A DNA stretch of 64,000 nucleotides from Candidatus Levyibacteriota bacterium (GTDB lineage Bacteria > Patescibacteriota > Microgenomatia > Levybacterales > UBA12049), in contig PLZJ01000002.1 of the NCBI GenBank assembly GCA_003152105.1, positions 6,188-70,187 of the forward strand. The letters run 5' to 3'. This document shows positions 2,847-56,900 of this stretch, piece after piece. Each line of letters starts with the position of its first letter. Within the stretch, counting starts at the first letter, position 1. The translations under genes were made by a program, and so were the position numbers. Below the pieces are notes generated by a model. It was not told the DNA's origin. It worked only from the letters and a program-made list of their open reading frames with translations, and searched no databases.

Positions 2847-2881
2847 ATATTAATTAAAGATTATTGAGATATAAAAAGCAA

Positions 2882-3610: not shown

Positions 3611-3836
3611 ATTAAATTGCTATAAGATATAATGAATTGAATACTATTTAATTTAATTAAGCAATCGTTCATTTTATGTATCCAGTTTTATAACTTATAT
3701 TTCAGCCTGCATGCGTAAATAATTGTAAATTATTTGTTATATCTAATCTTAGTACTATAATATTCTATATTTAATTGTCTTAAATGCTTTATTATTTCCC
3801 ATTGCATCTTATACACCAATATAAATTTTCTATAGG

Positions 3837-28200: not shown

Positions 28201-31200
28201 TTGGACAGCTTGTTCTGGGGTATCTTCAAACTATTGGATACAAACAAATGGAATTGGTGTAGCAAATGGTGGCTATACCGCTCTTGGAAATACCACAACT
28301 GATCTATTGATTGGTGGGACTTCAACTGCTTCTGCTGAATTTGCAGTACTAAACGTAGCGCCAGGTCTTACGCCAGTTGCTTCTGTTTCTGCAGGATCAT
28401 CTGGAACTGGAACCACAGAAAATTCAGGTATTTCACTATCTGCTAATGGAACTATACAAACTGTAGGAAGAACAACACTTACCGTTGGAGGCAATACAAC
28501 AGGAGATATATTTTTCAATCCTGGCGGTGTCGGACTTGGAAATTCTCTTTCCATAGATGTTGGTGGAAATGTAGGAATTGGTATGAATAATGGAAACGTT
28601 CCGAATGCACCCTTACAGATAAGGACTGCAATTCCTGATGTCAGCAATGGAACTGACATAAATATCACTGGAACCATGAGTTCTTTAACTAATGGTCAAT
28701 ATGGAGCAAGAATCACACCCCAACTTGGCATAAGCTCTAATCCTGCTAGTAATTTGTTTGAGTATGGGGCCGAAAACTCTCCTTCATTTAATATGGCAAA
28801 TACAGGAGTTACTTTTTCTAAAGTATTTTTAGTAGGCTCTGATGCTAATAATTTTCTTTCTGGAAATGGCATTCTTGGAACTTCAATCGGTTTTCAAACC
28901 GAAACAACACTAAATAATGATACAACTCGTGTTACTAATGCAATTGGATTAAATGTAGAAGGAATAGTAAAAAATTGTTTAACTTGTGTAGTTGGTAATA
29001 GTACGGGCATTGATATATTTGATCAAAGTGGTCTTGCCACAAATACAGCCAATCTTGTTATTAATACTAGTGGTACAGTACCAACTGGAAATTACAGTAT
29101 ATATAATGCAAGTTCACTACAAAACTATTTTGCAGGCAATCTTGGTCTAGGCACAGTTAGTCCAACTGCACAACTTCAAGTTGTTGGCACTAACTCTCCT
29201 ACTGCTTCTATTTCAGCAAATTCTGCGTTTACTGGTCTTGTCGTAGATAACAAAGGTGGAACAGCAAATCTAGGCGATATATTTACAGCATCTGCCTCAG
29301 GACTAGCTCGTTTCACGATTGCAAATAATGGAAATCTAACGTTAAATGGATCAACATATACAACAAACAACAATAGTGTTCTTTACACCAATGGGTCAGG
29401 AAATCTTCTTGCTGCAACAACAGGTTCTTCCAACCTCTGTCTTGTGTCTGGAGTATCTGCACCAACATGGACAGCTTGTTCAGGAGTTTCAAGCAACTAC
29501 TGGATACAAACAAATGGTATTGGGGTTGCTGGAGGAGGTTATACCGCTCTTGGAAATACCACAACAGATTTACTCATAGGTGGAACCTCCACTGCATCAG
29601 CTAAATTTGCAGTCTTAAACGTTGCACCAGGAGGAACTCCTGTTGCTTCTGTTTCAGCAGGAACATCTAGCTCAGGGACAACTGAAAACTCAGGTATTGC
29701 CCTTTCTGCAAATGGATCCATTCAGTCTGTTGGAAAAACAACACTTACTATTGGGGGAAATACCACCGGAGATATATCGCTTAATCCTGGAAATAATGGT
29801 GCAGGCACGCTCTATCTTGCGAGTACTGGTAATATAGGCATAGGAACTACAGCTCCTACGGCTCAACTTCAAGTTGGAGGAGGATTAAGTTCTCCAGGTA
29901 ATATCACAGTATCTTCTATTTCTGCAAATACTAATCAGGCTGGTTTAATAGTTGATAATGGCGGTGGATTAAATAATGCAGGAGCGATCTTTACTGCTTC
30001 TGCAGCTGGTATGTCGCGTTTTACTATTGCAAACTCTGGCAATCTAACGCTTAATGCATCAACTTATACCGCCAATAATATTAATGTTTTATATTCCAAC
30101 TCCTCTGGTAATGTTCTTGCAGCTTCAACTTCAACCGGAAATCTTTGTCTTACATCAAATAGTGGAGGTACTGCGGCTGCATGGGGCAATTGTTCTTCAG
30201 CTTCTAGTAACTACTGGCAGCTAAGCGGCAATGTTCTTTCCCCAGGACTTTTATCTGATGATTTAGTTATTGGAGGAAGCTCAACTTCTTCTGCGGCATT
30301 TCAGGTGTTTTCAGGTAAAAAAACATATGGAGCCATAACAGAACCAGCTGGAACTGCGTCTTCCTCTGGAGACTTATCTTTTGGAGCAGCAAATGGAACA
30401 ACGCAAAATTTAAATATATTAAATGGTAACTCATTTCAAATCAGAACTTCACCAGGTGGACCAGAAGGATTACTCGCTACTCCTGCACTGTATGTTAAAA
30501 ATAATGGCAACGTTGGCATTGGCACAGTAGCTCCAGCTTCAAAACTTGAGGTAAATGGTGACATTTCTTCAAAAAATACTTCTGTACAAGGATATGTATA
30601 TGCATACGATACTTCAGGATCACATTATGTGAGAATGTATAACGACGGTACAAACGGATACGTATCGCTTAGCGATGGAGCGACATTAGGGATTTCTTCA
30701 AATACATATGTCTTTACGCAAACACAACAATATTTTAGAGCTCAAGGAAACACCTTTACAAATTATGTTGGCTTACAAGATACAGATGCAACTGGAGGAA
30801 AACTTACAACTTCATTTGCAAATTTAAATATTAATACTGATATGACAACAGTGGTTAATACTACCGGAACAAATGTATCAGATATATTTGCTGCTTCAAG
30901 TTCTGCAACTACAAGATTTGTGATTAACTCAAATGGAAATGTTGGGATTGGCACTTCTCAACCAGGAGCACAGCTACAGATTGTAGGCACCAATGCGCCG
31001 ACGGCTTCCATTTCAGCAAACTCCGCCTATGCTGGGCTGGTTATTGATAATAAAGGAGGAACAAACAATGGCGGCGACTTGTTTACTGCGTCTTCTGCAG
31101 GACAAACTCGATTCAGAATTGCAAATACTGGTGCTGCCTTATTTCAGGGAGATACTTTAACTTCAATTGGTAATGGTGCTCAATATAATGGAAGTAATGC

Positions 31201-33631
31201 TGTTATAAATGCAATTGGAGACTCAGGAAGTCTTATTCCAAATTCTGGATTTGAATCTGCTCTTGCGGGAACATCATCGGCAAGCACAGTATATTTTGCA
31301 GATGGTTGGGCAATAGCAGCAACAATGTCTGCCAATACAATCCCGCAAACAACACGAGATACGAGTACTTCCGCTAAAGGTCAAGCTTCAGCTAAGATAA
31401 ACTTTAATGGTGGTTTAGCAGAACAAACTGCCATTTATTCTGATTGCGTACCTTTAGCGCTAGCATCTGGAACCGGCTCATATAATTTATATTATTATGC
31501 TAAATATTCCTCTAACATTCCTACTGTACGCTCATATATTGATGGATATACGTCAAAAGCAAATTGTCAAGGCGATATAAGTCCGACAATAGGCGGGATG
31601 GGTTCTCCTACTTTAACTACTTCGTGGGCAAACTACGGAACTGCAAACATTTCAGGCTTAGGTGCAAATATTACATGGGGACGTGTTCATTTCTTTATTG
31701 CTTCAACAAATCCAGGTGGAGCAGCTTGGATAGACGGCGTAAGGCTCATAGAATCTGATACTTCTCATGGTGTTGACTATGCTGAAAATTACCCTGCAAA
31801 TCCAAGCAATATTCCTCAACCAGGAGATGTGGTTACTATCCTACCATTAAATGGTGTAACTGTTGTTCAACCCTCTACGACATATCAAGATTCCTCAACA
31901 ATTGGAGTTGTTTCAACGCAACCAGGAGAAGTGCTTGACGATGGGCAAATGCCTAGTCCAAAAGTTCCAATTGCCCTATCAGGACGAATACCAGTCAAGG
32001 TATCTACTAAATATGGCTCTATACATGTTGGAGATTATGTAACCTCTTCTGAAATACCTGGAGTAGCTGTTAAATCTACAAGACCAGGGATTGTAATTGG
32101 AACTGCAATGGAAGATGATACCGATCCTAATCCAGATGATATAAATAGCATAGTAGTATTTACACATGTAGGTTATGAAAATCCTATGCCACAAATTGCA
32201 AGCATCAATGATCTTTCTATTACTGCAAATGATAATTCTGTTGATAATTCACTTGCCTATATTATTAAAGACGCCACAGGCAATACTATTGATTATATAG
32301 ATGCATTTTCTTCTGCAGCGATTGGGGTATTAAAAGCTGGCTCAATCCAAGCAACAGATATAGCAACAAACACCCTTTCAATCAATGGTCAATCCATAAA
32401 AGATTATATCCTTTCAGTTGTACAAAATGCTGGACTTAACAACGGCACTCTTATATCACCTATTGCATCAGTGAATGAGATTCATACTAATTTAATTTCC
32501 CCGCTTTCAGAAAATGGAAATGTTGAAATAGCTTTAGGAAATAACACAGTTTCAGTTCAAAATAAAACAACTGGAAAAACAGTTGCATCTATTGATGATA
32601 ATGGAAATGCAACATTCTCAGGTACGATTCGAGCAAAACGAATTATTGCAGATGAAATAGTTGGATTAAATAACAGTACAGAGTCTGCAAGTTATATTAC
32701 TCAAAACGTTTCAAATATTACAAATGTTTATAATAGTACGCCTTCTGCAAGTTCAAACATTATCTCTCCAGTAAGTTCAGGAAGCGGACAGATTGCTTCA
32801 AATGTAGATACCCTATCTTCAAGTAATTTACAAACGAGTAATATTGATATTGCATCATATTCATCAGAGCTTCAATCTGTTAATAATCTACAAGAAACTA
32901 CTGGCAGCTTTACTGACGGTTTAATCGCTTTTGGCCCATCTAGCTTCACGGATGTTTCAGTTGCAGGAAAGTTCTCTGTTGATAGAAGTTTAACTATTGG
33001 GAGCAACTCAATAAATGTCATTGGAAACGATTTACAGCTTCAACCCCTACAACAAGGCGGCGTATCCATTGAAGGAGGATTAGTTTACATTGATGCTTCT
33101 GGAAACATGCGAGTGAATGGAAATACCGAATTTGCACAAAATGTGACAGTAAAAGGAACTTTAGCCGCAGGAATTATAAGCCCATTAGCAAATCAAAATT
33201 TGAATGTTGAGCTTCCTGGCAACAATAATTTTAATGTACAAACAGCTACAGGAAGTAGTGTATTACAAATAAATGGTAAAGGAGATATTAATTCATCTGG
33301 AAGTGGGAATTTTGCGGATGTATTAGCTAATGAATTTAACATTATTAGAAGTGCACAAGCAGATACTTCAAATACTCAAACAGTAGCAAGTGGTTCCGCA
33401 GGAACAGCAACAATTGTAAAGGGTCAAACTGAAAGAACAATTATAACACCCTATGTAAAAGCAAATTCATTGATTTATATTACTCCAACTTCAGATACAC
33501 AAGGAGTCATTCCTTATGTTGCTCGCCAAACAACAAATGATCCAGATAATAATAACAAGAGCTCATTTACTATTCAAATTTCTACACCAACATCAAAAAA
33601 TATAAATGTTAATTGGTGGATTGTAAATTAA
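22277..33631 (+). CDS. Giant (3784 aa) membrane-anchored surface protein. It has N-terminal tandem tyrosine-recombinase-type core-binding (SAM-like) domains, a basic linker, a TM anchor, a LamG-like lectin module, a Gly-rich repeat region, repeated Cys-loop modules and a conserved C-terminal module.
   Basis: aa 1-215: two copies of the 'T(V/I)KNY..D(I/V).QF.KW....LSSLRK(F/Y)' integrase N-terminal pattern. The first ATG lies after an in-frame TAA at 22265. TM 'YSITHYFHFAILIIFASTVAFITY' at ~23410-23490. LamG hallmark 'YYKFDENSGTIANDATGNGNTATLNGA..WTSSGK...LQLDGSTNYVS' at 26488-27130. Confidence 0.8.
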   Translation: MEFIKSFIDFLIEHKSSKATVKNYRADISQFVKWYEATYKTTFSPNDVTNQIIASYKTVRLSSDSNNTLSQKTIERHLSSLRKFFSYLLSENITTSNPFAASEEKQIEKDIWHIQAFKNFLYVNNSSNLTIKNYIIDVRQFLKWVEEVVQAQEAWIVTDQNIFTYINKNLIEEYRSRLIESSGFSPTSVNRKLSSLRKYISWAVDNGIVANIEEDPISNNLVKDDVLKNISENINDNKYITNKHFDEVIANQTSAYSSIPPIRLIQRAFKLLDLAFVFFLIIPTAKAFKLSKYNFWKFKGKEVFTSQTPISPKLDSINKLNRIQNNVSNRLLNLRKQNPNIKKIFYAPLSVSTKYMPFHKKLLFHLRYTRPKWYKKYHSYSITHYFHFAILIIFASTVAFITYQHFFQSKGNQAEAVAQTTIPRILSFQGILTDANGNPIATTKQIRFELYNDPSATGSGKELWEEVRTVTPDQNGIFAVNLGINGVSTGNCASFPPPGPATGACTIPVSVFTQNSNVYLGVTIGSDIELTPRQQIAAVGFAANSESLQGLIPTTDTGSISSLSLGNYYEVLATDGNGNVTLGGSTLTTIQETGGGLRLIGNPLILTTANGGNLQLSTDTKGLIDVQKPLTNTTTNGNARINGTGNVTDTGAVEVDGLFATLATSSGQSAVTIDQQSTGPVLSASVSGQAVFTIDNSGNLTNSGNITTSGSGAGLTFSGGSTHNISASGGTLQLGAITLNGAIAGGGQNITGLGTINGLGITANTGVITTGTWNANPISTQYGGTGQNWSSAAQGSIPYFSSTGGMGLIGVGSSAQCLIGGTTPTWSSCSSASSNYWQLDATGKVLSQINSYDLTVGSSPATGSSTSSAAFQVFALSKGNTPAGTISSAGNLQVAGIASSSALAVGYGINQVTANNLVVSGNVGIGTNTPAALLDIEGTTGAPNANQVLKIIGGTGVGGGSGLAGGTGAIASISAGNGGAGGSNASGNGGFGGNGGGQLILAGSGGTGGNSTLANQSGGFGGQGGTLGFVTGNGGNGGSDTAGSGAATSNGGNGGNGGDFNLILGTGGQGGSSHGSSSTIGLGGNGGSVYLQAGTGGTAGAAGNGINNDGLGGNITIAGGTGGSSTLGTFGNGGKVYIYGGLAGSGSVGNVVLAQTSAGVNQGNVGIGQANPTSILDIGTVNPTIQADSSNTNLALSTNGTGSLFIDTTAAGNIKIASNAALLSLGNSTHLTTLLGNNIYNPNITGAGNTGGVFYDANNQGSLAVTAAGSNGNCLLSGGAGAPTWGSCGSAGGSYWQLNSNVVSPVQNYFDLSVGGTATASAPFQVFASRNPLTFTPAGTISTLGNIQVAGVASSSALAVGYGQNQVQSGSGNAVFSGNVGVGTNTTSNAQLTDQLSSYTLLNSLQVYYKFDENSGTIANDATGNGNTATLNGANIWTSSGKINSGLQLDGSTNYVSTNYVGPLGSNARSVNIWFKGWTTTERTIWNYGGAGTAGALDFEEGIGGNGNSIGFRTGGGAYGYWTTSLTNDGLWHMLTVTYAAGGLENTIKLYLDGVQQNSLTDNFGGNTVNTTSGVLTMGDITGTGISGLDEFAVWGRSLTSAEVTQLYNSGSGKQYSFTSLLQLLSNSGSVLSSFNGAGSLGIGTIAQNALDVFGSAAFGSYAGNQYAPTNGLIISGNVGIGTSSPSGQLQVFGSSNNPTASISANSAYTGLLVDNSGGTSAQGSIFTASTSGITKFTVNNNGLILVGTNSTTNPGTLSVYGTIQSNGIANGGTDFLALGLPSTPTGLPQYLGNWQSTQAWALGPISNSSTDKTVYLGIASNTTGTWNGASYANLSVGGNVAVGYHYPSFTGIASLIVNQQTGGADLITASASGTTKFNVDNNGDITIAAGSYIDTNAGGTLSIGTNNATTLNLATNTNVTALSIGNGSSVDKIFGSGITTNQNSVLYLGAANQLGAATTGSSNLCLVSGANTPTWTACSGVSSNYWIQTNGIGVANGGYTALGNTTTDLLIGGTSTASAEFAVLNVAPGLTPVASVSAGSSGTGTTENSGISLSANGTIQTVGRTTLTVGGNTTGDIFFNPGGVGLGNSLSIDVGGNVGIGMNNGNVPNAPLQIRTAIPDVSNGTDINITGTMSSLTNGQYGARITPQLGISSNPASNLFEYGAENSPSFNMANTGVTFSKVFLVGSDANNFLSGNGILGTSIGFQTETTLNNDTTRVTNAIGLNVEGIVKNCLTCVVGNSTGIDIFDQSGLATNTANLVINTSGTVPTGNYSIYNASSLQNYFAGNLGLGTVSPTAQLQVVGTNSPTASISANSAFTGLVVDNKGGTANLGDIFTASASGLARFTIANNGNLTLNGSTYTTNNNSVLYTNGSGNLLAATTGSSNLCLVSGVSAPTWTACSGVSSNYWIQTNGIGVAGGGYTALGNTTTDLLIGGTSTASAKFAVLNVAPGGTPVASVSAGTSSSGTTENSGIALSANGSIQSVGKTTLTIGGNTTGDISLNPGNNGAGTLYLASTGNIGIGTTAPTAQLQVGGGLSSPGNITVSSISANTNQAGLIVDNGGGLNNAGAIFTASAAGMSRFTIANSGNLTLNASTYTANNINVLYSNSSGNVLAASTSTGNLCLTSNSGGTAAAWGNCSSASSNYWQLSGNVLSPGLLSDDLVIGGSSTSSAAFQVFSGKKTYGAITEPAGTASSSGDLSFGAANGTTQNLNILNGNSFQIRTSPGGPEGLLATPALYVKNNGNVGIGTVAPASKLEVNGDISSKNTSVQGYVYAYDTSGSHYVRMYNDGTNGYVSLSDGATLGISSNTYVFTQTQQYFRAQGNTFTNYVGLQDTDATGGKLTTSFANLNINTDMTTVVNTTGTNVSDIFAASSSATTRFVINSNGNVGIGTSQPGAQLQIVGTNAPTASISANSAYAGLVIDNKGGTNNGGDLFTASSAGQTRFRIANTGAALFQGDTLTSIGNGAQYNGSNAVINAIGDSGSLIPNSGFESALAGTSSASTVYFADGWAIAATMSANTIPQTTRDTSTSAKGQASAKINFNGGLAEQTAIYSDCVPLALASGTGSYNLYYYAKYSSNIPTVRSYIDGYTSKANCQGDISPTIGGMGSPTLTTSWANYGTANISGLGANITWGRVHFFIASTNPGGAAWIDGVRLIESDTSHGVDYAENYPANPSNIPQPGDVVTILPLNGVTVVQPSTTYQDSSTIGVVSTQPGEVLDDGQMPSPKVPIALSGRIPVKVSTKYGSIHVGDYVTSSEIPGVAVKSTRPGIVIGTAMEDDTDPNPDDINSIVVFTHVGYENPMPQIASINDLSITANDNSVDNSLAYIIKDATGNTIDYIDAFSSAAIGVLKAGSIQATDIATNTLSINGQSIKDYILSVVQNAGLNNGTLISPIASVNEIHTNLISPLSENGNVEIALGNNTVSVQNKTTGKTVASIDDNGNATFSGTIRAKRIIADEIVGLNNSTESASYITQNVSNITNVYNSTPSASSNIISPVSSGSGQIASNVDTLSSSNLQTSNIDIASYSSELQSVNNLQETTGSFTDGLIAFGPSSFTDVSVAGKFSVDRSLTIGSNSINVIGNDLQLQPLQQGGVSIEGGLVYIDASGNMRVNGNTEFAQNVTVKGTLAAGIISPLANQNLNVELPGNNNFNVQTATGSSVLQINGKGDINSSGSGNFADVLANEFNIIRSAQADTSNTQTVASGSAGTATIVKGQTERTIITPYVKANSLIYITPTSDTQGVIPYVARQTTNDPDNNNKSSFTIQISTPTSKNINVNWWIVN
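25133..25710 (+). repeat. Gly-rich low-complexity coding repeats (GGNGG/GGTGG-type) inside the giant gene
   Basis: ~190 aa of 'GGTGVGGGSGLAGGTG...NGGNGGNGGDF...GGQGGSS...GTGGTAGAAGNG'. Confidence 0.7.
28141..29775 (+). repeat. Intragenic duplication within the giant gene. Two ~365-nt copies (28141-28512 and 29411-29775) encode ~95% identical peptide modules. The nucleotide copies differ at many synonymous sites.
   Basis: Both encode 'AATTGSSNLCLVSG...PTWTACSGVSSNYWIQTNGIGVA.GGYTALGNTTTDLLIGGTSTASA.FAVLNVAPG.TPVASVSAG...TTENSGI.LSANG.IQ.VG.TTLT.GGNTTGDI'. Confidence 0.7.
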
Positions 33632-40559: not shown

Positions 40560-41279
40560 ATGAAAAAATTAATCAGCATATTACCAATCATACTAGTACT
40601 TCTCAGCTCGTTTGCGGGTCAAACTTTTGCCGATGATTATGGAGTATCTAACTATGGTAGTAATTGTAATAGTTCCTATGGTGGCAGCAATTATTCTGGT
40701 TCCTCATGTTCTGTTAGTACCATTAGCATAAACAAGCTTGTACAAAATCCAAAATCAAAACAATATGTGGAAAATCTCGCATTAACTGATCCTAATTATG
40801 CTCCAAATCAAATAGTGCCTTTTCAAATTAATATAACAAACACTGGCAATACTTCTCTTACAAATGTAAAAGTAGTAGATAGTTTCCCACAATACACAAC
40901 CTTTGCCGGTGGACAAGGCAGCTATAATCAAAGTCAAAATACTGATACCATTACCGTTGGTAGCCTAAATCCTAATCAAAGTGAATCTATTATGGTAGAT
41001 GGAAAAGTCGGAGATACTAACACTTTACCACAAAATCAGTCACAATTTTGTTTAGTTAATGAAGCAAGCGTAACGGCGGATAATATACCATCAAGCACAG
41101 CTAATTCTCAATTCTGTGTGACTCAGCAAATTTCCGGAGTTACAACTAAAGGAGGGCTTGAAGTAGCCTCACCAACAACTATATCAAAAACTCCTGGGAC
41201 TGGACCTGAAGCATTACCTTTACTTGCTCTTTTACCAACTGGATTATTAGGTGCTTTGCTTCGAAGAAAAACTAAATAA
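40560..41279 (+). CDS. Secreted DUF11/CARDB-like repeat-domain protein with the same C-terminal sorting-like signal (TGPEALPLL + hydrophobic + RRK)
   Basis: Signal peptide. 'FQINITNTGNTSLTNVKVVDSFP' is typical of the DUF11 conserved-repeat domain. C-terminus '...TPGTGPEALPLLALLPTGLLGALLRRKTK'. Confidence 0.55.
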   Translation: MKKLISILPIILVLLSSFAGQTFADDYGVSNYGSNCNSSYGGSNYSGSSCSVSTISINKLVQNPKSKQYVENLALTDPNYAPNQIVPFQINITNTGNTSLTNVKVVDSFPQYTTFAGGQGSYNQSQNTDTITVGSLNPNQSESIMVDGKVGDTNTLPQNQSQFCLVNEASVTADNIPSSTANSQFCVTQQISGVTTKGGLEVASPTTISKTPGTGPEALPLLALLPTGLLGALLRRKTK

Positions 41280-41601
41280 CACTGCTCCACTTTCCTCAGG
41301 CAGGCATTCTTACAATATTCTTACTATAGGTATCTATACTACATCTATTATATGTTAAAATTAGCTGTTAAATTAGCCTTGATTCAGTTTAAGCTTAGCT
41401 CTAGAATAAACTTGACAAAATGTTAAAATATGATATACTACAGGATAGTTCTGCTCAACTATACTTAAGGCGCAGAATAATGCGTCTTTTTTCGTATTTT
41501 GAGAAAGAACAATACTATGCCCCTGCTAATAGCTAGCAAACAGGCATACGCACATTAATAATTGGGAATCAGGAAATATAAGAATTCAGCACTTTCTAAG
41601 T

Positions 41602-41683
41602 GGCTGCGTTCTGTAGGTATAGATGCTTCAAGTAAATCCGGGCAGAATTTATTTGTGGCTATACTAGCCTACAGAACGCAGCC
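41602..41683. repeat. 16-bp perfect inverted repeat (GGCTGCGTTCTGTAGG ... CCTACAGAACGCAGCC) at the left edge of the GC-rich island
   Basis: Arms at 41602-41617 and 41668-41683, ~50-nt loop. The GC-rich ORF begins 170 nt downstream. Confidence 0.6.
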
Positions 41684-41856
41684 AAAAATAAAAACTTAGA
41701 GAGGAAGAATTAATGACGTGATAAACAAGCGCGACGGACCGATATCGATGACAGCTTTGGATGATCCCATCCGTTATTGACCATTGTGTCAAAGGGGTAG
41801 CTCTTGCACTATGCATTAGCTTAGCTTCAGAATAACCGAAAAGAAAGAGGAAATTC

Positions 41857-42891
41857 ATGCGTATACTACGCGGCGACAAGTATGTGTTGGCATTTGCGTT
41901 AAGCATCGTGCTTAGCCTTATCGTCAACTTCTACAGCGTTCTTCCTGTATCGGCTTCTCCGATCTCGAACGGCGCTGCCTCATCGGCCCTTACGAACAGC
42001 ATCTTTCCGGCTAACCACTTGCAGCTTTCTGAGCCAAGTATAGCCTATGAGATGCATACCGTGTCTAACTTCAAGCCACTTGTGGTTGGTCCATGCAGAA
42101 TGACCGATATGGGAAACATCAACACCCACGGCAAATGGATCACGCTCGTCGGCGCAGTCGGTGGATCAGGTTTCGGCCTTTGGTCTGGAACTAACGCTCA
42201 AAGAATCGAAATTTACCTGCACCTGAAATATGGTCAGACAGTTCGATTCCGGGGCCAAGGTCACCGATGGGACATGAAGTACGTCTGTCCAGACAAAAAT
42301 TTCTGGGGAGAGCAGGCATCTCACTATCTCAACGTCCGTACCGGACTGGGATTTACGATGGGTCCTGCAGTCGACAAGGAAACGCCTTGGTATCAGTTCT
42401 TCGACAATCCGTTTTGTCAGCCTATGAACATGCAGGTATCCGAAGTCGGAACCTTCATGCATCTGAGCATTCAAGACTCACAGTGGAATGGAAAGTTCTA
42501 CAGCATCGAAAAAGGATGTCCAGGACCGCCCAAGACACCATGTCTTGCAAAACGAATCGGAGACAGTACCAAAGTACCAGACAACAAGCCGTGGAAAATC
42601 AACGTCCCTGCACATCACTACTATGTGATTAACGATGCGTGGACTAACTTCGCGTCGTTACCAAATCTGCAAGGACAACAGTGGATCATCTTGCTCAAAC
42701 CGCAAGCACACACGATCTACTTCAACGGCCGAGGAAGTCTCTGGGACGAAGGCGATGCACCACGCTGCTTTAATCCAACTATGGGAGAAATCTGGCGTGA
42801 CGTAGCCAAGTACCAACATACCGCACATCCTTGGACGTTCCTCCAGGAATCGGCACTCGCCTCATATCACCTGGTTGGTTCGACCAACTAA
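41857..42891 (+). CDS. Secreted Cys/Trp-rich protein of unknown family, encoded in a GC-rich compositional island
   Basis: Signal peptide (LAFALSIVLSLIVNFYSVLPVSASP). At least 9 Cys. Codon usage rich in CGC, GGC and CCG, unlike the rest of the window. Confidence 0.6.
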   Translation: MRILRGDKYVLAFALSIVLSLIVNFYSVLPVSASPISNGAASSALTNSIFPANHLQLSEPSIAYEMHTVSNFKPLVVGPCRMTDMGNINTHGKWITLVGAVGGSGFGLWSGTNAQRIEIYLHLKYGQTVRFRGQGHRWDMKYVCPDKNFWGEQASHYLNVRTGLGFTMGPAVDKETPWYQFFDNPFCQPMNMQVSEVGTFMHLSIQDSQWNGKFYSIEKGCPGPPKTPCLAKRIGDSTKVPDNKPWKINVPAHHYYVINDAWTNFASLPNLQGQQWIILLKPQAHTIYFNGRGSLWDEGDAPRCFNPTMGEIWRDVAKYQHTAHPWTFLQESALASYHLVGSTN

Positions 42892-42943
42892 ATCACAAAG
42901 GTCGACTCGACCTAGATCTAGCTTCTGCTAGATATCCTGAATT

Positions 42944-42991
42944 CCCAAGGGGGGATAAAGAAAGTATAGGAAACTATACTACCCCCTTGGG
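42944..42991. repeat. Nested hairpin/palindrome (CCCAAGGGGGG...GTATAGgaaaCTATAC...CCCCCTTGGG) at the right edge of the GC-rich island
   Basis: Outer arms 42944-42954 and 42982-42991. Inner palindrome GTATAG/CTATAC. Preceded by palindromes GTCGACTCGAC and CTAGATCTAG (42901-42920). Confidence 0.5.
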
Positions 42992-43091
42992 CGGAAAAGC
43001 AATATATTAGTAACCTGCAATGCAGAAGATTCACGATTTGCTCGTGAAACCCTTTTCTTGCTATTACTGCTATTCCGCCCTTCCCACCTTA

Positions 43092-43112
43092 TGTACAAAA
43101 TTATTTTGTACA
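43092..43112. promoter_or_regulatory. Perfect 10+1+10 palindrome TGTACAAAAT-t-ATTTTGTACA (operator-like) 13 nt upstream of the GT2 gene start
   Basis: Read directly. The arms are exact reverse complements. Confidence 0.4.
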
Positions 43113-43124
43113 TAGAGTAGGAAT

Positions 43125-44054
43125 ATGAAAAAAAATATAAAACAAATATTACCACTGATCTCAGTTATTATGCCTGTATATAATGCGGGAGATTATTTAG
43201 TGCCTGCAGTTGAAAGTATTCTACATCAAACTTACCAAAACTTTGAATTTATTATCATAGACGACGCTTCTACTGATAATTCGCTCGACGTACTCAGAAG
43301 ATATAAAAAATTATACCCGGATAAGATAAAATTACTAGCTTTAAAGAAAAATCGGAATCATGGCGGTGATCGATGCGTAAACCAAGGATTAAAACTAGCA
43401 AAAGGTAAATATATTGCTCGAATGGATGCCGATGATATCGCCGTATTGACTCGACTTGAAAAACAAGTTACATTTTTAGAAACTCATCCTGATATATTTT
43501 TAGTTGGTTCATCTGCGCATGTCATAGATTCTAAAGGTAATACTATTGGTGAAAAACTTGAACCTAACTCAACAAAAGACATTTACAATGCGTATTTTAC
43601 ATTTCATCCATTAATTCATCCAACTTGCATGTTTAGAAGAATTCATAAAGGTATTGAGTTTAGGTACAATATTAAATTTAGTGCGAACAATGATTATTAC
43701 ACTTTTTTCGGGATTCTCTGTAAAGGGTACAAATTTATTAATCTTGATGAAAAACTACTTTATTATAGAATCCATGGAAAGAATGACACCTTTGTGAATA
43801 TGAAACAGAAGTTTAGTAATACTCTTAAAATCAGATATGAAATCGTTACAAAATATGGATATAAACCAAGCCCAAGAGCTCTACTTATCACCATATTTCA
43901 AAGCTTAGCAATTTATCTATTGCCTGAAAAGATGCTACGAAATCTTTATTTTCTTGCAAAAGGAATTACAAAAAAAGAACAAATTGTATTCCAACTTAAT
44001 CCTTATGGATTCATTTCCCTATTTGGAAGAAAAATACTCGCCTTTACTTCTTAA
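43125..44054 (+). CDS. GT2-family glycosyltransferase
   Basis: 'ISVIMPVYNAGDYL...FEFIIIDDASTDNS...ARMDADD' GT-A fold motifs. Confidence 0.75.
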   Translation: MKKNIKQILPLISVIMPVYNAGDYLVPAVESILHQTYQNFEFIIIDDASTDNSLDVLRRYKKLYPDKIKLLALKKNRNHGGDRCVNQGLKLAKGKYIARMDADDIAVLTRLEKQVTFLETHPDIFLVGSSAHVIDSKGNTIGEKLEPNSTKDIYNAYFTFHPLIHPTCMFRRIHKGIEFRYNIKFSANNDYYTFFGILCKGYKFINLDEKLLYYRIHGKNDTFVNMKQKFSNTLKIRYEIVTKYGYKPSPRALLITIFQSLAIYLLPEKMLRNLYFLAKGITKKEQIVFQLNPYGFISLFGRKILAFTS

Positions 44055-44059
44055 AACCT

Positions 44060-45757
44060 ATGAATCTATTTAGTAAAATTATTTCTCCTTATAATGTAAT
44101 TTTTAATGTCTTATTAGTGCTTATGGCGATAGGGCTTACCTTCCCAGCAATACTACATATTAACCAATTAGCTATGGGTGATGGTGGAGATAATTATCAA
44201 TATGTTGGATTTCAATATGTAGCTCATGTGCTTTTTTCTCACGGCTATTTTCCTTTTACATGGACTAATTTATGGAGATATCCTGCCGGTATTAATTTTC
44301 AATTAGCTTTTGACTCATCATTCTTTATTATGATAGGTGTATTTCTCTATCAATTTTCACAAAATCCAATATTAATTTATAACTTATCGATGTTAGTTGC
44401 GCTCTATTGTAATTTGGTATTGAGCTATATTAGCTTTCGCGTATGGTTTGATAAAACTACGGCTTTTATTGGAACCATAATATATGGTGCTTCTTTTTAC
44501 ACAATCGCACGACTTGCAGGTCATGCAAATTTAATGCTAAGCGCAACAATACCCTTCTTTTTTGCATCTATATGGCTCTTCTACAAAAGGAAGGATTTGA
44601 TAAGTATTGGATATATTGGAATTGCAATATTATTACTTCTTTCATCTTCCCTTGAATATCCACTTATATTAATCGGCGGTCTTATCTTTGGTTCACCAAT
44701 ACTATATTTATTTTATCCAAACGAGATGAACAAGCTACTTCAGCTTGGATTTAAAAAAATTATTCTCCTAATAATTATCGTTTGCTTAGCTGTTGGAATA
44801 TTTTCTATTGTACAAGGAGAAAAACTCCTTAGTATATTTAATAACTCAGTTCAACTTCCTTATCAAGGCCTACAATATGTTGAATCTATTAATTTTTTTA
44901 CTCCAAACAACTATGTATATAACTTAAGTGGAATAATTGCAAATCCTACAGGTAGAGGAATTGAAAAAGCAAGCGTATTCTTTGGGTATACTGAATTACT
45001 TTTATTCGTTATTGCGCTTTATTATCTAAGACGCAAACGCATAACGCTCGCGCTTGGAAGTATATTTATTATTTATTTCATCATTGCACAAGGAGTTCAA
45101 ACGCAATTAAGTTCTATATGGCCTTATCAATATCTATTTTTAGAACCACCTTTTCGGGACATAGTTGAACCGGGGAGATTCTTTCTAATTTTCTATTTTG
45201 TATCTACGATTCTGATTTTGCTTTTCATAAAGCATATAAAAAGTAAGAAAATAATTATTGTAATACTACTTTTATTAATAATTGAAAGAATACCAATTAA
45301 TTTCCCGATACGTGGCTACCCTACAGAAAATTTTATACCGATAGTACAAAAATCGGATTCAAATGCTGTGTTAGACTTACCTATTTTTACCGATTGGTGG
45401 AATGGACCACTTTATGATTATTACAGCATTTTATACCAAAAACCAATTGTAAATGGATATATTCATTGGTCTGGAAATACACCCAACGCAAAATATTTTA
45501 CGGATTCATTAAATTCTTTTTCATGCTATTCTGGAGCGTCAACACAAATTGACAAATCAGATGCAGAACTCATGAAAAATCAATTAATTACTCAGCTAAA
45601 ACAAAATAACATTAAAACTGTTGTTATTCATAAAGATATCTATCATTTTCCTGAATGTACAAAAGCTGCATATTATATACAAACATTAACCCAAGATAAT
45701 CAAGTCTGGAAGATTTTATTCCAAGATGACAAAACCATAGTATTGTGGTTACAATAA
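44060..45757 (+). CDS. Polytopic integral membrane protein (putative GT-C-like glycosyltransferase or glycan-assembly protein)
   Basis: More than 10 hydrophobic helices. Linked to GT2 genes. No motif I can name with certainty. Confidence 0.35.
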   Translation: MNLFSKIISPYNVIFNVLLVLMAIGLTFPAILHINQLAMGDGGDNYQYVGFQYVAHVLFSHGYFPFTWTNLWRYPAGINFQLAFDSSFFIMIGVFLYQFSQNPILIYNLSMLVALYCNLVLSYISFRVWFDKTTAFIGTIIYGASFYTIARLAGHANLMLSATIPFFFASIWLFYKRKDLISIGYIGIAILLLLSSSLEYPLILIGGLIFGSPILYLFYPNEMNKLLQLGFKKIILLIIIVCLAVGIFSIVQGEKLLSIFNNSVQLPYQGLQYVESINFFTPNNYVYNLSGIIANPTGRGIEKASVFFGYTELLLFVIALYYLRRKRITLALGSIFIIYFIIAQGVQTQLSSIWPYQYLFLEPPFRDIVEPGRFFLIFYFVSTILILLFIKHIKSKKIIIVILLLLIIERIPINFPIRGYPTENFIPIVQKSDSNAVLDLPIFTDWWNGPLYDYYSILYQKPIVNGYIHWSGNTPNAKYFTDSLNSFSCYSGASTQIDKSDAELMKNQLITQLKQNNIKTVVIHKDIYHFPECTKAAYYIQTLTQDNQVWKILFQDDKTIVLWLQ

Positions 45758-50926: not shown

Positions 50927-53900
50927 TTAGTTTGTACTGCTCACCTCCTTTCCATCAGAAGTTACCGTTTTAGGATTATCAACACTTACTGCTTGCCAAG
51001 AGAAATACACATTATTAGAAGCTGATTTATCAAGTAATATCTCAAATCCTTTTGTACTTATATTTGTAACGACATAATGAATATTTTCAGAAAGCAATAA
51101 GTTATTAATGGTATTTTGGCAATCACCAATGCTCTGCGAAACCACACAAGTATTGCTTGCGATTTCATTTTTATACTCTTGATCTGTTAACTGAGGCGTA
51201 GAAATTGAAATTGATACAACAGGTGAATTATCATATGGCTTACTAAAGTTAACCTGCACTTTATTTGCATTTTTATTTACAACAGCATATCCTGCAGTAT
51301 CATTATTGAATGTTGCTCTACCACTAAACTGTACATCTTTATGAAAAACAACATTATCAAAGAAATCAGATATTCCAGTAACAATAAGATTATGGGTAGT
51401 AATTGTATCCACTACGCTTAGGACTCCTTCAAATAAACCTCCCCCTTGTACGTCAAGCTCATTTTGTACAAGCGTCATTCCACCACTTGAGGTTAATGAT
51501 GAAGCAATTGATCCAGATGTTGATGCGTTTGGCAAAATCAGAGATGCAAATTGTGCACTGAGTGTACTTGTTTGATTAAAAAGAGAAAAAGATGCTTCTA
51601 GGCTTGCAACGCTTGATTCTAGATTTGCAATTCTATTTAAAAGTACTGTTGAATCTTGTGTAGCAGAATTAGTTGCATTTTTAGAATTAAGCAAACTAGT
51701 AAGCCCCACTATTTGATCTGCATGTATAGATTTTGCGTAAATATCTCCAGCAAATATCGCGTTACCGTTAGAATCTATTGTTAAGGCTGCACTGCTTGAT
51801 GCATCCGATGCAATTATTAGCTTATTGTTTTTACCAATAGATATAAGTAAATCAGAATTTGGCTGTGCTTCAATTTGTCGGGTCATAATGTCTTGCGTTA
51901 CTACTCGAGGAGCTATTACAGATTTTGAAGCAATAAGTTGATCAGCATACACCTGAGATAATCCGCCACTTTGCGTCGAAGCATCACTATTAGTTTGATC
52001 AACTAGTTTACCAAGTGTTTGTAGATCAGAAGTTTGTTGCGATTGACTATCTAAAGTCATACCAACTGGAGAATCGCCATCGACAAATGACCCATTAAAC
52101 GTTGCTGCTTTTATAAATGCAGTAATTTGACCCACTCCTGTGCCGCTATATGATTCCATTGCTTGACCAATTACAGGTCCTGCTTTTATTGCTTTTGCGG
52201 CAACGCCTGGAATTGAAGATGAAGTTAAGTAATCTCCTGGCTTGATGTCTCCATTTTCAGTAGTTACATTTACTGGTACGCGTCCAGAAAGCGCTATTGG
52301 TATTGCCTCACCCCCATTTATTGTTGAATCAGCTTGAGATAATCTAATTCCCGGATTTGCAGAAAAAACACCAATGATATGTTGATCAAATGGCTGTGAC
52401 TTATCTACAAACGTACCTTCATTTGGATCAATACTAACTACATCACCGGGCTGAAGTGTTGTATCACGAGTACCATAATCTTCAGCAACGTCATAAGCTC
52501 CAAAGCTTGTTGTTATGCCATGGTCAAAAACGAATTGACCTGTTGATTGCGATCCTTGATACACACTCGCAGATTGTGATGCAATAAATGAAATAGAACC
52601 GGTATTAAAAAATCCATTTTGCTCAGGTGATTGTGATGTTGATGCATGGAATACTAATGAATATGATTGGTCAAGCGTATTAGTATACTGATATATCTCA
52701 GCACTTCCACTCATTTTTTCTGTACCTGCAAATAAACTACCATTATATGGCTGTAACACAGTTACGCCATCAATTGCAGTTGTACACGTACCATTGTTAC
52801 ATTGAGCATTTGTTGGGCCACCTATTTGACCAGCAGCACCTTGAGAAACACGTGTCCAATTTGTGTCACCATCATAACGATAAACTTCAGCTTTTCCTCC
52901 TGGATCATTAGAATTTCCAATGAGCGTTCCGATATATAACTTATTGTTATATACAGCCATTGACGAAACTTGATCAATTGATCCTGTGCCTCCAGTAGCA
53001 ATAGTACCTTGAGCTGATGAAACTATTACAAAATTTGTAGCAGTTTGACTAGCCCATGTATTCGAATCGTCAACCCTCATTACTTCAGCTTTTGCTTTTT
53101 GAGTAGTGCCAAAGTATACATGTCCATTCCATTCAGCCATTGCAGTAATTCCATTAACCGTAGTGTCTGGAGGAGAATTACCTTCTGCTACCCATGAGCT
53201 CGTACCTCCAACACCGGTGCTATATACATAAATTGCTCCTAATCCAAATTTGTTAACACCAATATATAAAAGATTATTAGCAACTACCATTGCTGCAACC
53301 GCATCATAAGCTGCAGAACCACCTTGAACAATCGTTCCAGGTACACTGTCAATTGCAGTCCATGTTGTTCCCCCATCATAACGATAAACTTCTGCTCGAC
53401 CATTAGTAGTCCCTGTACCAATAAATAATTTACCGTCATATACTGCCATAGCAGTTATTGCATTAATTTGCGTAGTACCACCACTTCTTATGGTTCCTGC
53501 AGTAGCTTGAGATATGACAGACCAGTTTGTACCATCATATTGGTAGACTTCAGCTCCTCCTGGTTTTGAAGTTCCGACAATCAATCTATTGTTATAAACA
53601 GTCATTGCAGAAATCGTTGAAATATTTGTGGTAGTTAAAATTTGACCTGGTGTTGTTGTTGAAATTCTTGCCCAAATTCCTGTACTACCATTATATCTAT
53701 ATACCTCAGCCGCACTATTTTTTGCGGTTCCAACATAAAGACTTCCGTTATAAACGGTAGATGCTGATATAGAGGCAATACCTGAAGAAGCAGCGGTTGA
53801 AAGTTGTCCAGCTGCATTTGAAACTGCTGTCCATGTCTGAGTTGCAGCAGCAGCTGTATTTGCCTGACTACCAATCATGATATTTCCGCCTTCTACATCC

Positions 53901-56900
53901 AATTTTTGCGCAGCACTTGAAGTACCGATTCCTATGTTTCCATTTTGTTGTATCACAAACTGAGTTAATCCAGAAGATGAAGCGGTAAATAAATCTCCTA
54001 GTCCATTATTATTCACTACAAGCGAAGCGAAAGAAGTAGTTCCAGATACTGAAGCAACAGATAATGTTCCACTATTTCCTCTAATATCAAAATTGGATAG
54101 AGGTGTCGAAGTACCAAATCCAAATCTCGTTGTTGCGCTAGAGGTGCCTATCAAAACATTTCCGTTTGCATTGATACGCAAATCCCCTTCACCAAAAACT
54201 GAGGAATCCCAATTGGTACCAATTTCAATAGCATTTTGTGAAGTTGTTCCTACACTCGCTTTTGCTAAACCATCGATAAATAACCCATCTGTTGGAGAAT
54301 TTATTATCCCTCCTACGCCTGTTGGAGTTATTCTTATGCCACCAGCTAATCCACCCGTAGCGGTATTATTGTTGTTTATGATAGATTTAAATCCAGAAAT
54401 AATATTTCCTGATGCAGGTTTTACATTCCACGTAGTTTGAAGTGCATTAATTCCTGATACAGTTGGTTCTTGCCCTACTACATTACCAATATCTACCAAA
54501 TCGTTAGCTGGTAAAAATCCAGCATCTATTTCTAGATTTTGCGCAGTAGGTCTTAAATTACCGATTTCAACTACACCACTATTTGTAATAGTAAATCTTG
54601 TAAGACCTGATGACGAAGCAGTGAATATGTCTCCTGCCCCTTTATTATCGATCAATACTGCTGCAAAGGACGTTTTGGCTGAAATGCTTGAGGCAGGTGT
54701 CGTTCCAATTGTTGAGCCAGCAATACCTAAGGCACTTGCTGCGTTAATATCAAATTGACCATTCATAAATCCATCTGGCGTTTTTCCAGGAGATAGATTT
54801 ATAATTCCAAAGTCAGCGGAAGCAGTAGAAACACCACCTATAAGAAGATCTGTTGTAGTATTACCAAGTGCTGTATATCCTCCATTCGCAACACCTATAC
54901 CACTTTGTTGTATCCAATAATTAGGCCCCTGAGAACCGGTAGCGCAACTTCCCCATGATGGCGCAGTACCTGTTCCTCCCGATACTAAACAATTTCCGTT
55001 TGCTGCCGTGGTTGCAGCGAGTATATTACCTGAAGAGTTAGTATATAGAACGCTATTATTACCCGTAGTATACGTAGCACCATTTACCGTTACGTTTCCG
55101 TTATTGTTAATAATAAAACGAGCAAGTCCCGAAGTAGATGCGGTAAATAAGTCGCCTTTACCGGTATTATCAATAACAACAGATGCAAATGAAGTTGAAC
55201 CTGAAATTGATGCAATTGGAAGAGTGCCAAAATTAGCAGCAGTAATATTATTAGCGGCTGCAGAACGAATATCGAGTGTTGCTAGTGGTAAATTTGGACT
55301 CGCGTTATTTAATGTTAAAAATCCAGGCAAATACGTTTGTCCGTTTTGTATCGATACCTCCCAGTTAGAATTGTTTGAATAATAAAACCCTGGACTATAT
55401 GTATTTCCATTTGTATCAACCTTAAAACTTCCACTATCTGTTTGTATTGCATTTTTCGAGGGCACTCCCCCATTATTTGCACCTGGAATTTCTAAGTAAG
55501 CCTGCGGATTTACTACTCCTATCCCAACATTTCCGTTATTTTGTATAACAAAGCGAGTAAGCCCAGAAGAGGAGGCAGTAAATATATCACCCAGATTTGC
55601 TGTTCCTCCTTTGTTATCAACTACTAAACCTGCATAGGCAGAATTTGCAGAGATAGACGCAGTTGGAGCATTGGTTCCAACAATCTGAAACAATGAAGAT
55701 GGAGCTGTTGTACCGATACCAAGATTACCAGCTAGATAATTTTGATAGGTTGATGAATCATAGATTCCATAGTTACCTGATGGCACCGATTGTGTCCCTA
55801 AAAGAGCAAGTGTGTTGTTAGTTGCAGCAGATAGACCAACAACATTAAGTCCTGCTTGATTGGTAACCTCACCTCCTGAAAAGGATTGAGCGTCTTCAGC
55901 AAAAAAGCCAATATTTGTTCCAACTATTCCAGTATAGGTACCATCATTCTTAAGCTTAGAATCAACGATATAAACCGTAGAAACACTATGCGAGGTTCCA
56001 GACAAACGAATATTAGTTTGTGTTCCATAGATTCCTCCCCCACTTACCAAATCTACCCCAGGAACAAAGGCAGCTTGATTTCTTATGCCCTCTGTTTGCG
56101 CATCTGCATTCACATTTATTGTTGGGGCAATAAGGACACCTTGACTTGTACCAGCTGCCGTATTACTTACTGTGACGCTTCCATTAAGAGTTAAGTCAGA
56201 TGTGACTGCTGAAGTTCCTGTTGCAGATCCTCCTAGTAAAATAACTGCCGTATTTGAAACAGTCCCGTTAACATTTAATGGGTTAGGTGGGTTCGTTACA
56301 TTAACTCCTATGCCAACATTACCATTACTGGTAAGAATAAGTGAAGATTGTCCTCCTGGTTTGAATTGTATGTCTCCTGTTGTAGAACCTCCAAGCGTTA
56401 ACATGGTTCTTCCAACAGTTTGCACATCTCCTCCTGCGTCAATATATACTCCTGACTTTTCTGAAGTTCCTGAAGAAGAAAGACCTGCAGAAACAGACGC
56501 AGTTGGTAGTCCCCCACCAATGACATTAAGAACTGAGAATTCTGCAGAGGAAGTAGCAGTACCACCAATGAGAAGATCTGAAGTTAGATTACCAAGAGCA
56601 GTATATCCTCCGTTGGAAACACCAATACCTGATTGTTGTATCCAGTAATTAGCTCCTGCAGTACCACTACCGCAACTTCCCCATGTTGGCAATCCAGTAC
56701 CGTTTGTTGTTAAACAAGTTCCCGTTGCAGCAGCTCCTGTTACTGCTTGGCCTAAATTATTTGAACTATCGACATAGAGTACCGCATTGGAATTTGATGA
56801 TCCTCCTCCAAAGCCAGGTAATTTTATAGTGACACCAGATGATCTACCCAAGGTAATTTGATTTGAATTCGCACCTGCGAGTAGTAAAGTATTTGAACCA

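Follow-up and report, generated by a model that had tools for sequence, protein, structure and literature searches.

Does a GC-rich patch in an AT-rich genome, carrying one gene for a putatively secreted protein without database relatives, mark a recent arrival, or may such a patch be a lasting property of its locus? This question is raised by a segment at about 41.7 to 43.1 kb of a 64,000-nt stretch of contig PLZJ01000002.1 from Candidatus Levyibacteriota bacterium. We call the whole stretch the window, and the segment, which holds a single open reading frame (ORF) between a surface-protein gene and a family-2 glycosyltransferase (GT2) gene, the island. An earlier note, written from the sequence alone, took the island for a recently acquired cargo gene bounded by inverted repeats. 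Our analysis leads to a different answer: with a probability of about 0.65, the island represents, in this genome, a conserved and hypervariable slot of deviant composition for secreted proteins, in which GC richness is a trait that persists across lineages.

Base composition of the island and of the same slot in relatives

The island, its ORF and the two genes that anchor the slot are located as follows.

40560-41279, plus strand: left flanking gene for a CLIPPER/DUF11 surface protein with a C-terminal sorting-signal-like tail, the conserved left anchor (Pfam PF01345, E = 3.9e-11)
41728-43088, no strand: GC-rich segment of about 0.49 GC, comprising 5' leader, ORF and 3' stem-loops (windowed GC, change-point analysis)
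41857-42891, plus strand: island ORF of 344 aa with a predicted Sec-type signal peptide and Cys-bounded, Trp-rich, beta-rich modules (ORF list, codon usage, AF2, family alignment)
43125-44054, plus strand: right flanking GT2 gene, the conserved right anchor (Pfam PF00535, E = 1e-33)

In 300-nt windows, the GC content is 0.47-0.51 across positions 41700-43049, compared with 0.28-0.37 on either side, and change-point analysis places the edges of the island at about 41728 and 43088. The most GC-rich 1300-nt window reaches 0.488 (z = 3.8; mean of the other windows 0.351, standard deviation 0.036), while the next highest value elsewhere is 0.444. The contrast estimated by eye in the earlier note, about 50% against the low 30s, is therefore real (47-51% at about 41.73-43.09 kb against about 31% in the flanks), and so is the atypical codon usage that it described. 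The GC content at third codon positions (GC3) is 0.557 for the island ORF, compared with 0.17-0.29 for all of the remaining 34 ORFs of at least 150 aa in the window. Codons of the NNC type are strongly favored over NNT, and G-ending codons are raised too: ATC makes up 74% of the Ile codons (12% in the background), and the shares of AAC, GAC and CTG are 76%, 77% and 23%, compared with 21%, 20% and 2%, respectively. The non-coding sequence follows the same trend, with GC of 0.40 at 41685-41856 and 0.43 at 42892-43010 against 0.27-0.30 in backbone spacers. GC skew across the island ranges from -0.17 to +0.12 and is about zero overall. Since a contig of 3716 bp from an independent JGI sample (L091) reproduces positions 41409-45124 of the window with two mismatches, the arrangement of the island is not an assembly artefact.

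The other mildly GC-elevated stretches of the window are two giant ORFs, at 22277-33631 (plus strand, 3784 aa) and 50927-57643 (minus strand, 2238 aa). In both, GC at second codon positions (GC2) is high (about 0.50) while GC3 stays at the backbone level (0.19), so that their rise reflects amino-acid composition and not a compositional island.

The genes flanking the island place the genome in Patescibacteria, with Candidatus Levybacteria as its nearest named relatives. We compared the slot with loci of relatives anchored on GT2 orthologs that are 57-66% identical. Ten relatives, Levybacteria-like bacteria that belong to the candidate phyla radiation (CPR), have DNA covering the slot (L004-L006, L007-L008, L087-L090 and L093); partial loci are an eleventh, listed without DNA, and a short contig of the nearest relative (L092). 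Among the matches listed in a metagenome scan with the GT2 alignment, the orthologous ones are L007, L008 and a short contig, L009. The gene order is kept: a TPR protein, a LysM-M23 peptidase, Rho, the CLIPPER/DUF11 protein (to the left of the slot in the relatives too), variable genes without a Pfam match, GT2, and a membrane protein of about 1100 aa. GC-rich genes lie just upstream of GT2 in all ten relatives with DNA over the slot. The earlier note had suggested looking in related genomes for an empty site between the flanking genes, and none of the ten has one; each holds GC-rich genes of the same family there, the very situation that the note itself had named as telling against its view of a recently acquired cargo gene. 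No integrase or transposase was seen in the slot (41280-43124), although the whole window was not systematically searched for integrases, and the nearest tRNA genes, at 36.1-36.3 kb, are about 5 kb away.

The base composition of each island and its backbone is given below.

Window: island GC 0.50, backbone GC 0.33; island GC3 0.56, backbone GC3 0.23
L004: island GC 0.62, backbone GC 0.46; island GC3 0.78, backbone GC3 0.50
L005: island GC 0.48, backbone GC 0.35; island GC3 0.37, backbone GC3 0.32
L006: island GC 0.58, backbone GC 0.39; island GC3 0.69, backbone GC3 0.33
L007: island GC 0.62, backbone GC 0.38; island GC3 0.85, backbone GC3 0.31
L008: island GC 0.56, backbone GC 0.41; island GC3 0.61, backbone GC3 0.42
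L087: island GC 0.60, backbone GC 0.36; island GC3 0.67, backbone GC3 0.32
L088: island GC 0.62, backbone GC 0.38; island GC3 0.73, backbone GC3 0.31
L089: island GC 0.64, backbone GC 0.38; island GC3 0.76, backbone GC3 0.31
L090: island GC 0.59, backbone GC 0.37; island GC3 0.63, backbone GC3 0.31
L093: island ORF GC 0.67, region GC about 0.40-0.45; island GC3 0.87

Across the relatives, island GC is thus 0.48-0.67, compared with 0.33-0.46 for the backbone, and island GC3 is 0.61-0.87 in nine of the ten, compared with 0.22-0.50 for the backbone. The weak case is L005, where GC3 (0.37) is near that of the backbone and total GC is still raised. Island GC and backbone GC are correlated across loci with r = 0.53. 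Because GC at first codon positions (GC1) and GC2 are raised in the islands as well, and slot spacers have GC of 0.40-0.58 against 0.27-0.39 in backbone spacers, the shift is regional and not a matter of codon choice alone.

The slot protein family and its turnover

The slot proteins of the relatives share one architecture, in which a signal peptide or N-terminal anchor precedes between one and three modules, each about 70-100 aa long with a Cys at either end and a core such as FRVxNxW[ST]N ... LLxPGE ... GGGSxWxxPxxC; the protein of L004 has a twin-arginine-type motif. A family profile built from L004-L007, P0125 and P0126 recovers the members that were left out (L090 at 2e-19, L089 at 7e-17, L088 at 3e-12, L008 at 4e-12 and L087 at 1e-10) and finds nothing in 79 less-related GT2 loci. 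The family has no Pfam, NCBIfam, PDB, PHROG or PADLOC match, and no member outside the locus was found in 5.8 billion protein clusters (word-seeded profile search), in phage and plasmid collections or in viral contigs (alignment A4). As judged from these searches, the slot genes form one undescribed family of predicted secreted proteins, found only at this locus in the sequences examined.

Part of this apparent isolation stems from annotation. Public gene calls lie on the antisense strand of real slot ORFs in three relatives (L093:2529-3320(-), L004:6396-7676(-) and L007:6509-9892(-)), and the real slot ORF of L093 runs from 2592 to 3518 on the plus strand with a GC3 of 0.87. Gene callers trained on the AT-rich backbone therefore miscall the strand in several islands, so that protein databases contain too few members of the family, and annotation is partly to blame for its "orphan" status. 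Our literature search turned up neither this locus nor any account of GC-rich islands in Patescibacteria, and the locus is not mentioned in the passages searched of a paper on horizontal transfer and genomic islands in groundwater Patescibacteria (PMC12455944).

For the protein of the window, the following features are predicted or were read off the sequence.

41847-41851, plus strand: Shine-Dalgarno-like GAGGA, 5 nt ahead of the ATG (read off the sequence)
41857-41955, plus strand: predicted signal peptide, residues 1-33, with cleavage after VSA (sequence pattern; AF2 helix 7-27)
42094-42288, plus strand: module A, Cys80-Cys144, in which GQGHRW..C aligns with the family's GxGSxW..C (G135 and C144 invariant in alignment A5)
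42415-42519, plus strand: short middle segment Cys187-Cys221, possibly a truncated module (Cys positions)
42541-42768, plus strand: module B, Cys229-Cys304, YYVINDAWTN...ILLKPQ...GRGSLW...C (W262, G293 and C304 invariant)

The N terminus shows the pattern expected of an exported protein (K/R residues, a hydrophobic stretch at 10-27, then VSA|SP). The protein has 12 Trp (3.5%, compared with 0.93% in the other proteins of the window) and 6 Cys (80, 144, 187, 221, 229 and 304). The picture drawn in the earlier note, a Cys/Trp-rich secreted product of 344 aa without a family it could recognize, holds in these respects, except that it counted at least 9 Cys. From its sequence, the product is predicted to be secreted and may contain disulfides. 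Structure models by AF2 have a pLDDT of 35 from the single sequence and 38 from a five-sequence alignment, with an N-terminal helix and scattered beta strands only, and the helix at 7-27 is the sole confident stretch.

Direct homology searches with the island protein agree with the earlier note that no family is recognizable. There is no match in Pfam, NCBIfam, PHROGs or PADLOC, and no fold, defense or phage model matches; tblastn finds nothing in phages or plasmids; a word-seeded search of 5.8 billion clusters returns the protein itself only; and an exhaustive phmmer search of 1.84 billion representatives finds the query and one spurious match, P0002, a 1029-aa tandem-repeat translation whose score is inflated through summed repeats. 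Sequence and profile matches in the PDB are insignificant or low-complexity (All4940, on the N-terminal linker; VP1, E = 0.019; gamma-crystallin, E = 0.89).

Relative to the slot family, the island ORF diverges far more than the other members, yet several comparisons converge. Among the ORFs of the window, the island ORF is the best match of profiles built from the relatives only (E = 0.0035 and 0.03), and in two tests with 2000 composition-matched shuffles made from its mature sequence, it outscores 1999 and all 2000, respectively (empirical p <=0.001). By BLASTP, its match to L006 has a value of 2e-4, and it shares 32% identity with L089 over 74 aa. In a nine-sequence alignment, the ORF follows both modules collinearly, and seven Gly/Cys/Trp columns that it shares are invariant; C144, W262, G293 and C304 are invariant in alignments A1 and A5, where the window has the motifs DAWTN and GRGSLW...C, and module B is the best match to the family core FRVxNxWSN..LLxPGE..GGGSxW..C. 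The ORF also has the position between CLIPPER and GT2, the strand of GT2, the signal peptide with Cys-bounded modules, and the GC above backbone that characterize the family. Altogether, these results suggest that the island ORF quite likely belongs to the resident family and has diverged far from its other members; otherwise, an unrelated gene would occupy the same slot.

L088 and L089 are close relatives, whose backbone proteins are 84-99% identical (GT2 excepted; synonymous divergence, dS, 0.35-1.16). Their island proteins, by comparison, are only 51% identical, with 71% identity over the first 150 codons and 28% in the remainder, and blastn finds no match between their island 3' halves. 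The 3' half thus appears to reflect module-level replacement or extreme divergence. In the 5' half, the third position differs in 39% of same-amino-acid codons, compared with 20-40% in the backbone (GT2 excepted), and GC3 is 0.75 and 0.74, compared with 0.22-0.35 in the backbones. In the pairs L087/L090 and L004/L006, synonymous sites are saturated in island and backbone alike, and island GC3 is still 0.63-0.86. A one-off import decaying under the AT bias of the host should have lost its GC signal; therefore, the signal is either maintained in place or continually redrawn from a GC-rich pool, and the GC-rich state looks maintained rather than decaying. The GT2 proteins of the same two relatives (L088:8001-8888 and L089:8001-8927) are 67% identical, with backbone GC kept. 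This GT2 gene resembles a second hypervariable gene, and a conserved ORF of 69/74 aa lies between it and the island gene.

Hairpins, repeats and neighboring genes

The sequence around the island ORF holds several inverted and direct repeats.

41325-41342, plus strand: 18-nt direct repeat, copy 1, TATAGG-NNN-CTATACTAC, itself a small palindrome (repeat scan)
41412-41496, plus strand: sigma-70-like promoter TTGACA-16-TGnTATACT, 11/12, followed about 30 nt on by a hairpin with a T-run (consensus scan only; fold)
41601-41684, plus strand: near-perfect 84-nt hairpin whose outer arms match perfectly over 17 bp, about 170 nt ahead of the start codon (-47.8 kcal/mol, z = -8.3)
42899-42991, plus strand: three consecutive 3' stem-loops, the last nested, with a G-run/C-run outer stem around an inner GAAA-loop hairpin (-44.1 kcal/mol, z = -6.3)
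42965-42982, plus strand: 18-nt direct repeat, copy 2, forming the inner hairpin of the 3' stem-loop (repeat scan)
43030-43056, plus strand: terminator-like hairpin and T-rich tail, where the island transcript probably ends (fold z = -3.5)
43081-43123, no strand: palindrome with 21-nt arms, immediately ahead of the GT2 start (repeat scan)

The earlier note had described a perfect inverted repeat of 16 bp on the left and a nested hairpin with short palindromes on the right, and took them as framing an inserted cargo gene. The structures themselves are there: the left repeat is perfect, although 17 bp long (41601-41617 / 41668-41684), and three hairpins occupy 42899-42991 on the right. They are not the termini of a mobile element, however, since the left and right repeats do not pair across the island and each folds as a stem-loop of its own. 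Further copies of the left repeat are absent from the window (0.08 matches expected), which led us to reject a repeat element such as a miniature inverted-repeat transposable element (MITE). The rise in GC starts just past the left hairpin.

The nested 3' architecture recurs, with different stem sequences, in L088 and L089, where it follows the island gene, and in L092, where it lies just upstream of GT2; its inner loop reads GAAA in the window, compared with GCAA in L092. Comparable long stem-loops, unrelated in sequence, surround the island genes of relatives. Between 41280 and 41856, the intergenic sequence does not convincingly resemble the matching regions of L088 and L089. We infer that the hairpins may act as transcript-end or stabilizing stem-loops that insulate the island gene from its neighbors. 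The pattern TATAGG-NNN-CTATACTAC occurs in two copies only in 64 kb (0.01 expected, for a pattern chosen post hoc), and the copies bracket the island unit. The promoter and hairpin at 41412-41496, which have no Rfam match, could be a small RNA of about 50 nt or an attenuated leader of the island gene. The palindrome at 43081-43123 may be an operator, or an RNA hairpin that masks the ribosome-binding site of the GT2 operon; L092 is also palindromic before GT2, at about 245-275, and the arms differ between the two (TGTACAAAAT/ATTTTGTACA in the window, TTCATAAA/TTTATGAA in L092).

Several genes near the slot vary among the relatives. An ATPase of the DUF8128/DUF87/TrwB-like type (720-770 aa) sits in the slot beside CLIPPER at L005:1826-3988, L006:985-3297, L007:3917-6076, L087:1-2049 and L090:2672-4846 and is not present in the window, L088 or L089; the L005 copy has a GC3 of 0.52, above backbone. 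Small free-standing GIY-YIG genes, homing-endonuclease-like, occur near Rho and LysM-M23 at L088:2388-2663, L089:1842-2138 and 3601-3897, and L093:227-514, and none was seen in the corresponding part of the window. Between GT2 and the membrane protein of about 1100 aa, the window has a gene for a 565-aa polytopic membrane protein without a Pfam match (44060-45757, plus strand); in the relatives, GT2 is directly followed by the large membrane protein, and a genome scan with the 565-aa protein finds two homologs only, one in L002 (39% identical, on a sequence that lacks upstream DNA) and one in the more distant locus L003 (26%). L088:14756-15304 (minus strand) is a further called ORF with elevated GC (0.49; GC3 0.53), between the pyruvate kinase gene and the one that comes next, with a low-complexity and maybe spurious translation, and L089 has no called gene at that position.

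Explanations weighed, parallels and significance

How would a persistently GC-rich slot work? From the elements described above, the ORF would form its own transcription unit, in which a ribosome-binding site follows a long 5' hairpin, and the 3' stem-loops probably serve to end the mRNA or to stabilize it. The product would be exported by the Sec route and would consist of disulfide-bounded, Trp-containing, beta-rich modules. It would most likely reside at the envelope, outside the cell, and bind or recognize a host cell, a partner or a phage, a role suggested by the export signals, the module architecture, the genomic neighborhood and the diversifying pattern. The protein would evolve under diversifying pressure with segmental replacement of modules, and GC richness would be kept either by a force specific to this locus, be it biased conversion or selection on nucleotide composition, or by the continual replacement of alleles with others of the same family, drawn from a GC-rich pool. 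The mosaicism makes GC-biased conversion at a recombination hot spot an attractive candidate, but this candidate is weakened by the GT2 gene, which is diverged and AT-rich.

Several observations weigh against a conserved GC-rich slot with a resident family. The GT2 proteins of L088 and L089 are strongly diverged (67%) and yet their genes are AT-rich, so that recombination alone does not predict GC richness. Island GC tracks backbone GC loosely, L005 has a GC3 of 0.37 against 0.32, and the window is intermediate, a pattern that also fits imports from a pool of about 60-65% GC at differing degrees of amelioration. Concerning the window ORF, both AF2 models are of low confidence, hhalign against the family is marginal (P = 0.024-0.18), and the ORF falls short of E < 0.01 in a profile search among 4654 ORFs; its similarity to the family would not be significant database-wide, and exhaustive phmmer found none. 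It is thus conceivable that the hot spot is occupied here by a gene not homologous to the family.

The slot might instead be a hot spot of repeated import, overwritten time after time by genes from a lasting GC-rich source, such as a host or partner of higher GC or a mobile element not yet sampled, with each genome at its own stage of amelioration and the window gene partly ameliorated. This would account for island GC clustering at about 0.58-0.64 whatever the backbone GC (r = 0.53), for the low GC3 of L005 and the intermediate value of the window, and for the segmental replacement between L088 and L089; the DUF87/TrwB-like ATPase in the slot of five relatives (L005, L006, L007, L087 and L090) points the same way, and donors could have been missed because wrong-strand gene calls under-sample the family. 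However, the same family fills the slot in every lineage, it has no member outside the locus in any of the collections searched (including the 79 other GT2 loci), and the synonymous divergence of the L088/L089 5' half equals that of the backbone, suggesting co-divergence in place at a GC3 of 0.75; we therefore regard repeated import as rather unlikely. A single recent acquisition of an effector or toxin gene, inverted-repeat-bounded and specific to this genome, draws on the strongly atypical composition and codon usage, on the failure of all database searches to find a relative of the protein, and on the 18-nt direct repeat that flanks the unit at 41325 and 42965. It is made improbable by the GC-rich secreted genes at the same position in all ten relatives, by repeats that are local hairpins and not matching termini, and by a slot in which no mobility gene was seen. 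The weak but collinear similarity of the window ORF to the resident family and the 3' stem-loop architecture common to L092, L088 and L089 argue against it as well, as does the lack of donor-lineage homologs among 5.8 billion clusters, 1.84 billion representatives, phages, plasmids and viral contigs.

Stable stem-loops at the 5' and 3' sides, such as those here, are of a kind known to stabilize abundant mRNAs; together with the strong preference for NNC over NNT, they would be expected if very high expression, special translation kinetics or mRNA stability had lifted GC3 through selection on codons or mRNA structure. Yet the rise extends to G-ending codons, GC1, GC2 and non-coding spacers, and GC3 stays at the backbone level in RadA and in two proxies for high expression, Rho and ribosomal protein S1, so that translational selection for the resident tRNA pool is very improbable as the cause. 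Finally, GC-rich patches in AT-rich genomes are often structured RNAs, and metagenome-assembled genomes can be chimeric, which would make the island a contaminant, a chimera or a non-coding RNA with a chance ORF. The chance of this is negligible: the independent sample reproduces the right GT2 junction and about 450 bp upstream of the ORF, eleven related assemblies have the same arrangement, and a chance ORF of 344 codons at about 50% GC has an estimated frequency of about 1e-7 per frame. A structured non-coding RNA was accordingly rejected, given the intact 344-codon ORF, its differences among GC1, GC2 and GC3, and the lack of an Rfam match.

A conserved slot of this kind has partial parallels in other systems. 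In Borrelia, the vls locus has 49.1% GC compared with 28.6% for the chromosome, and strong selective pressure has been argued to maintain it (PMC11499132). It is the closest known parallel, as both are variable surface-protein loci with an almost equal GC contrast (0.49-0.50 vs 0.31-0.33 in the window). The vls locus differs in its GC skew of about 0.52 (about zero here), its G-runs, its contiguous array of silent cassettes and its lipoprotein product, and the protein families are unrelated; neither blastn nor tblastn finds a second match to the island gene, as a silent cassette or paralog, in the 64-kb window. Flexible or "metagenomic" cell-surface islands, exemplified by the cell-wall island of Haloquadratum walsbyi (PMC4535781), resemble the slot in their fixed position by glycosyltransferase or envelope genes, their hypervariability among close relatives, and their surface or secreted products without assigned function. 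Such islands usually swap unrelated genes and carry the composition of the donor, whereas here one family has stayed in the slot over deep divergence, and its composition deviates consistently in the direction of much higher GC. Classical acquired islands, insertion sequences, MITEs and integron cassettes share the atypical GC and codons, the orphan ORF and the hairpin repeats at both sides, but the slot has no integrase or transposase that we saw, no adjacent tRNA and no matching termini, and it is occupied in all relatives.

Two more specific candidates were rejected. For an integron cassette, the arms TGGCTGCGTTCTGTAGG / CCTACAGAACGCAGCCA in the left hairpin, as read by eye, lack the attC core RYYYAAC...GTTRRRY, in a window not systematically searched for integrase. 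For the target of a diversity-generating retroelement, there is no long direct repeat in 41300-43300 and no second copy in the window, where no search was aimed at a reverse transcriptase. As regards the modules themselves, CBM2-type carbohydrate-binding modules are all-beta, extracellular, sometimes repeated units of about 70-100 aa with a Cys near each end and several conserved Trp. Their likeness to the slot modules is a lead only, with no useful Pfam, NCBIfam or PDB sequence match.

A bolder proposal, which we offer tentatively and hold to be possible rather than probable, is that this clade of AT-rich, ultra-small CPR bacteria actively holds one slot at a far-off compositional equilibrium (GC3 0.56-0.87 vs 0.2-0.35), with amino acids and spacers shifted along with it. 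If true, a locus-specific process, either targeted biased gene conversion or repair or selection on DNA or RNA composition, would be coupled to a hypervariable secreted family, and the slot would be a functional CPR counterpart of the Borrelia vls locus built of different parts.

Compositional islands are routinely read as recent horizontal transfer, and that reading fails at this slot, where the GC-rich anomaly occupies the same position in ten of ten relatives and survives the turnover of synonymous sites. What the data establish is a conserved GC-rich slot beside envelope-glycosylation genes in a CPR clade, carrying an undescribed family of predicted secreted proteins, with mosaic divergence and stationary GC3. 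If the composition is maintained in place, the slot would be a natural test case for what sets local base composition (selection, biased conversion or mutation) under strong AT pressure. The undescribed and rapidly diversifying secreted family adjoins genes for envelope glycosylation, and, given the presumed attachment of these organisms to other cells, it is a candidate for host or phage recognition.

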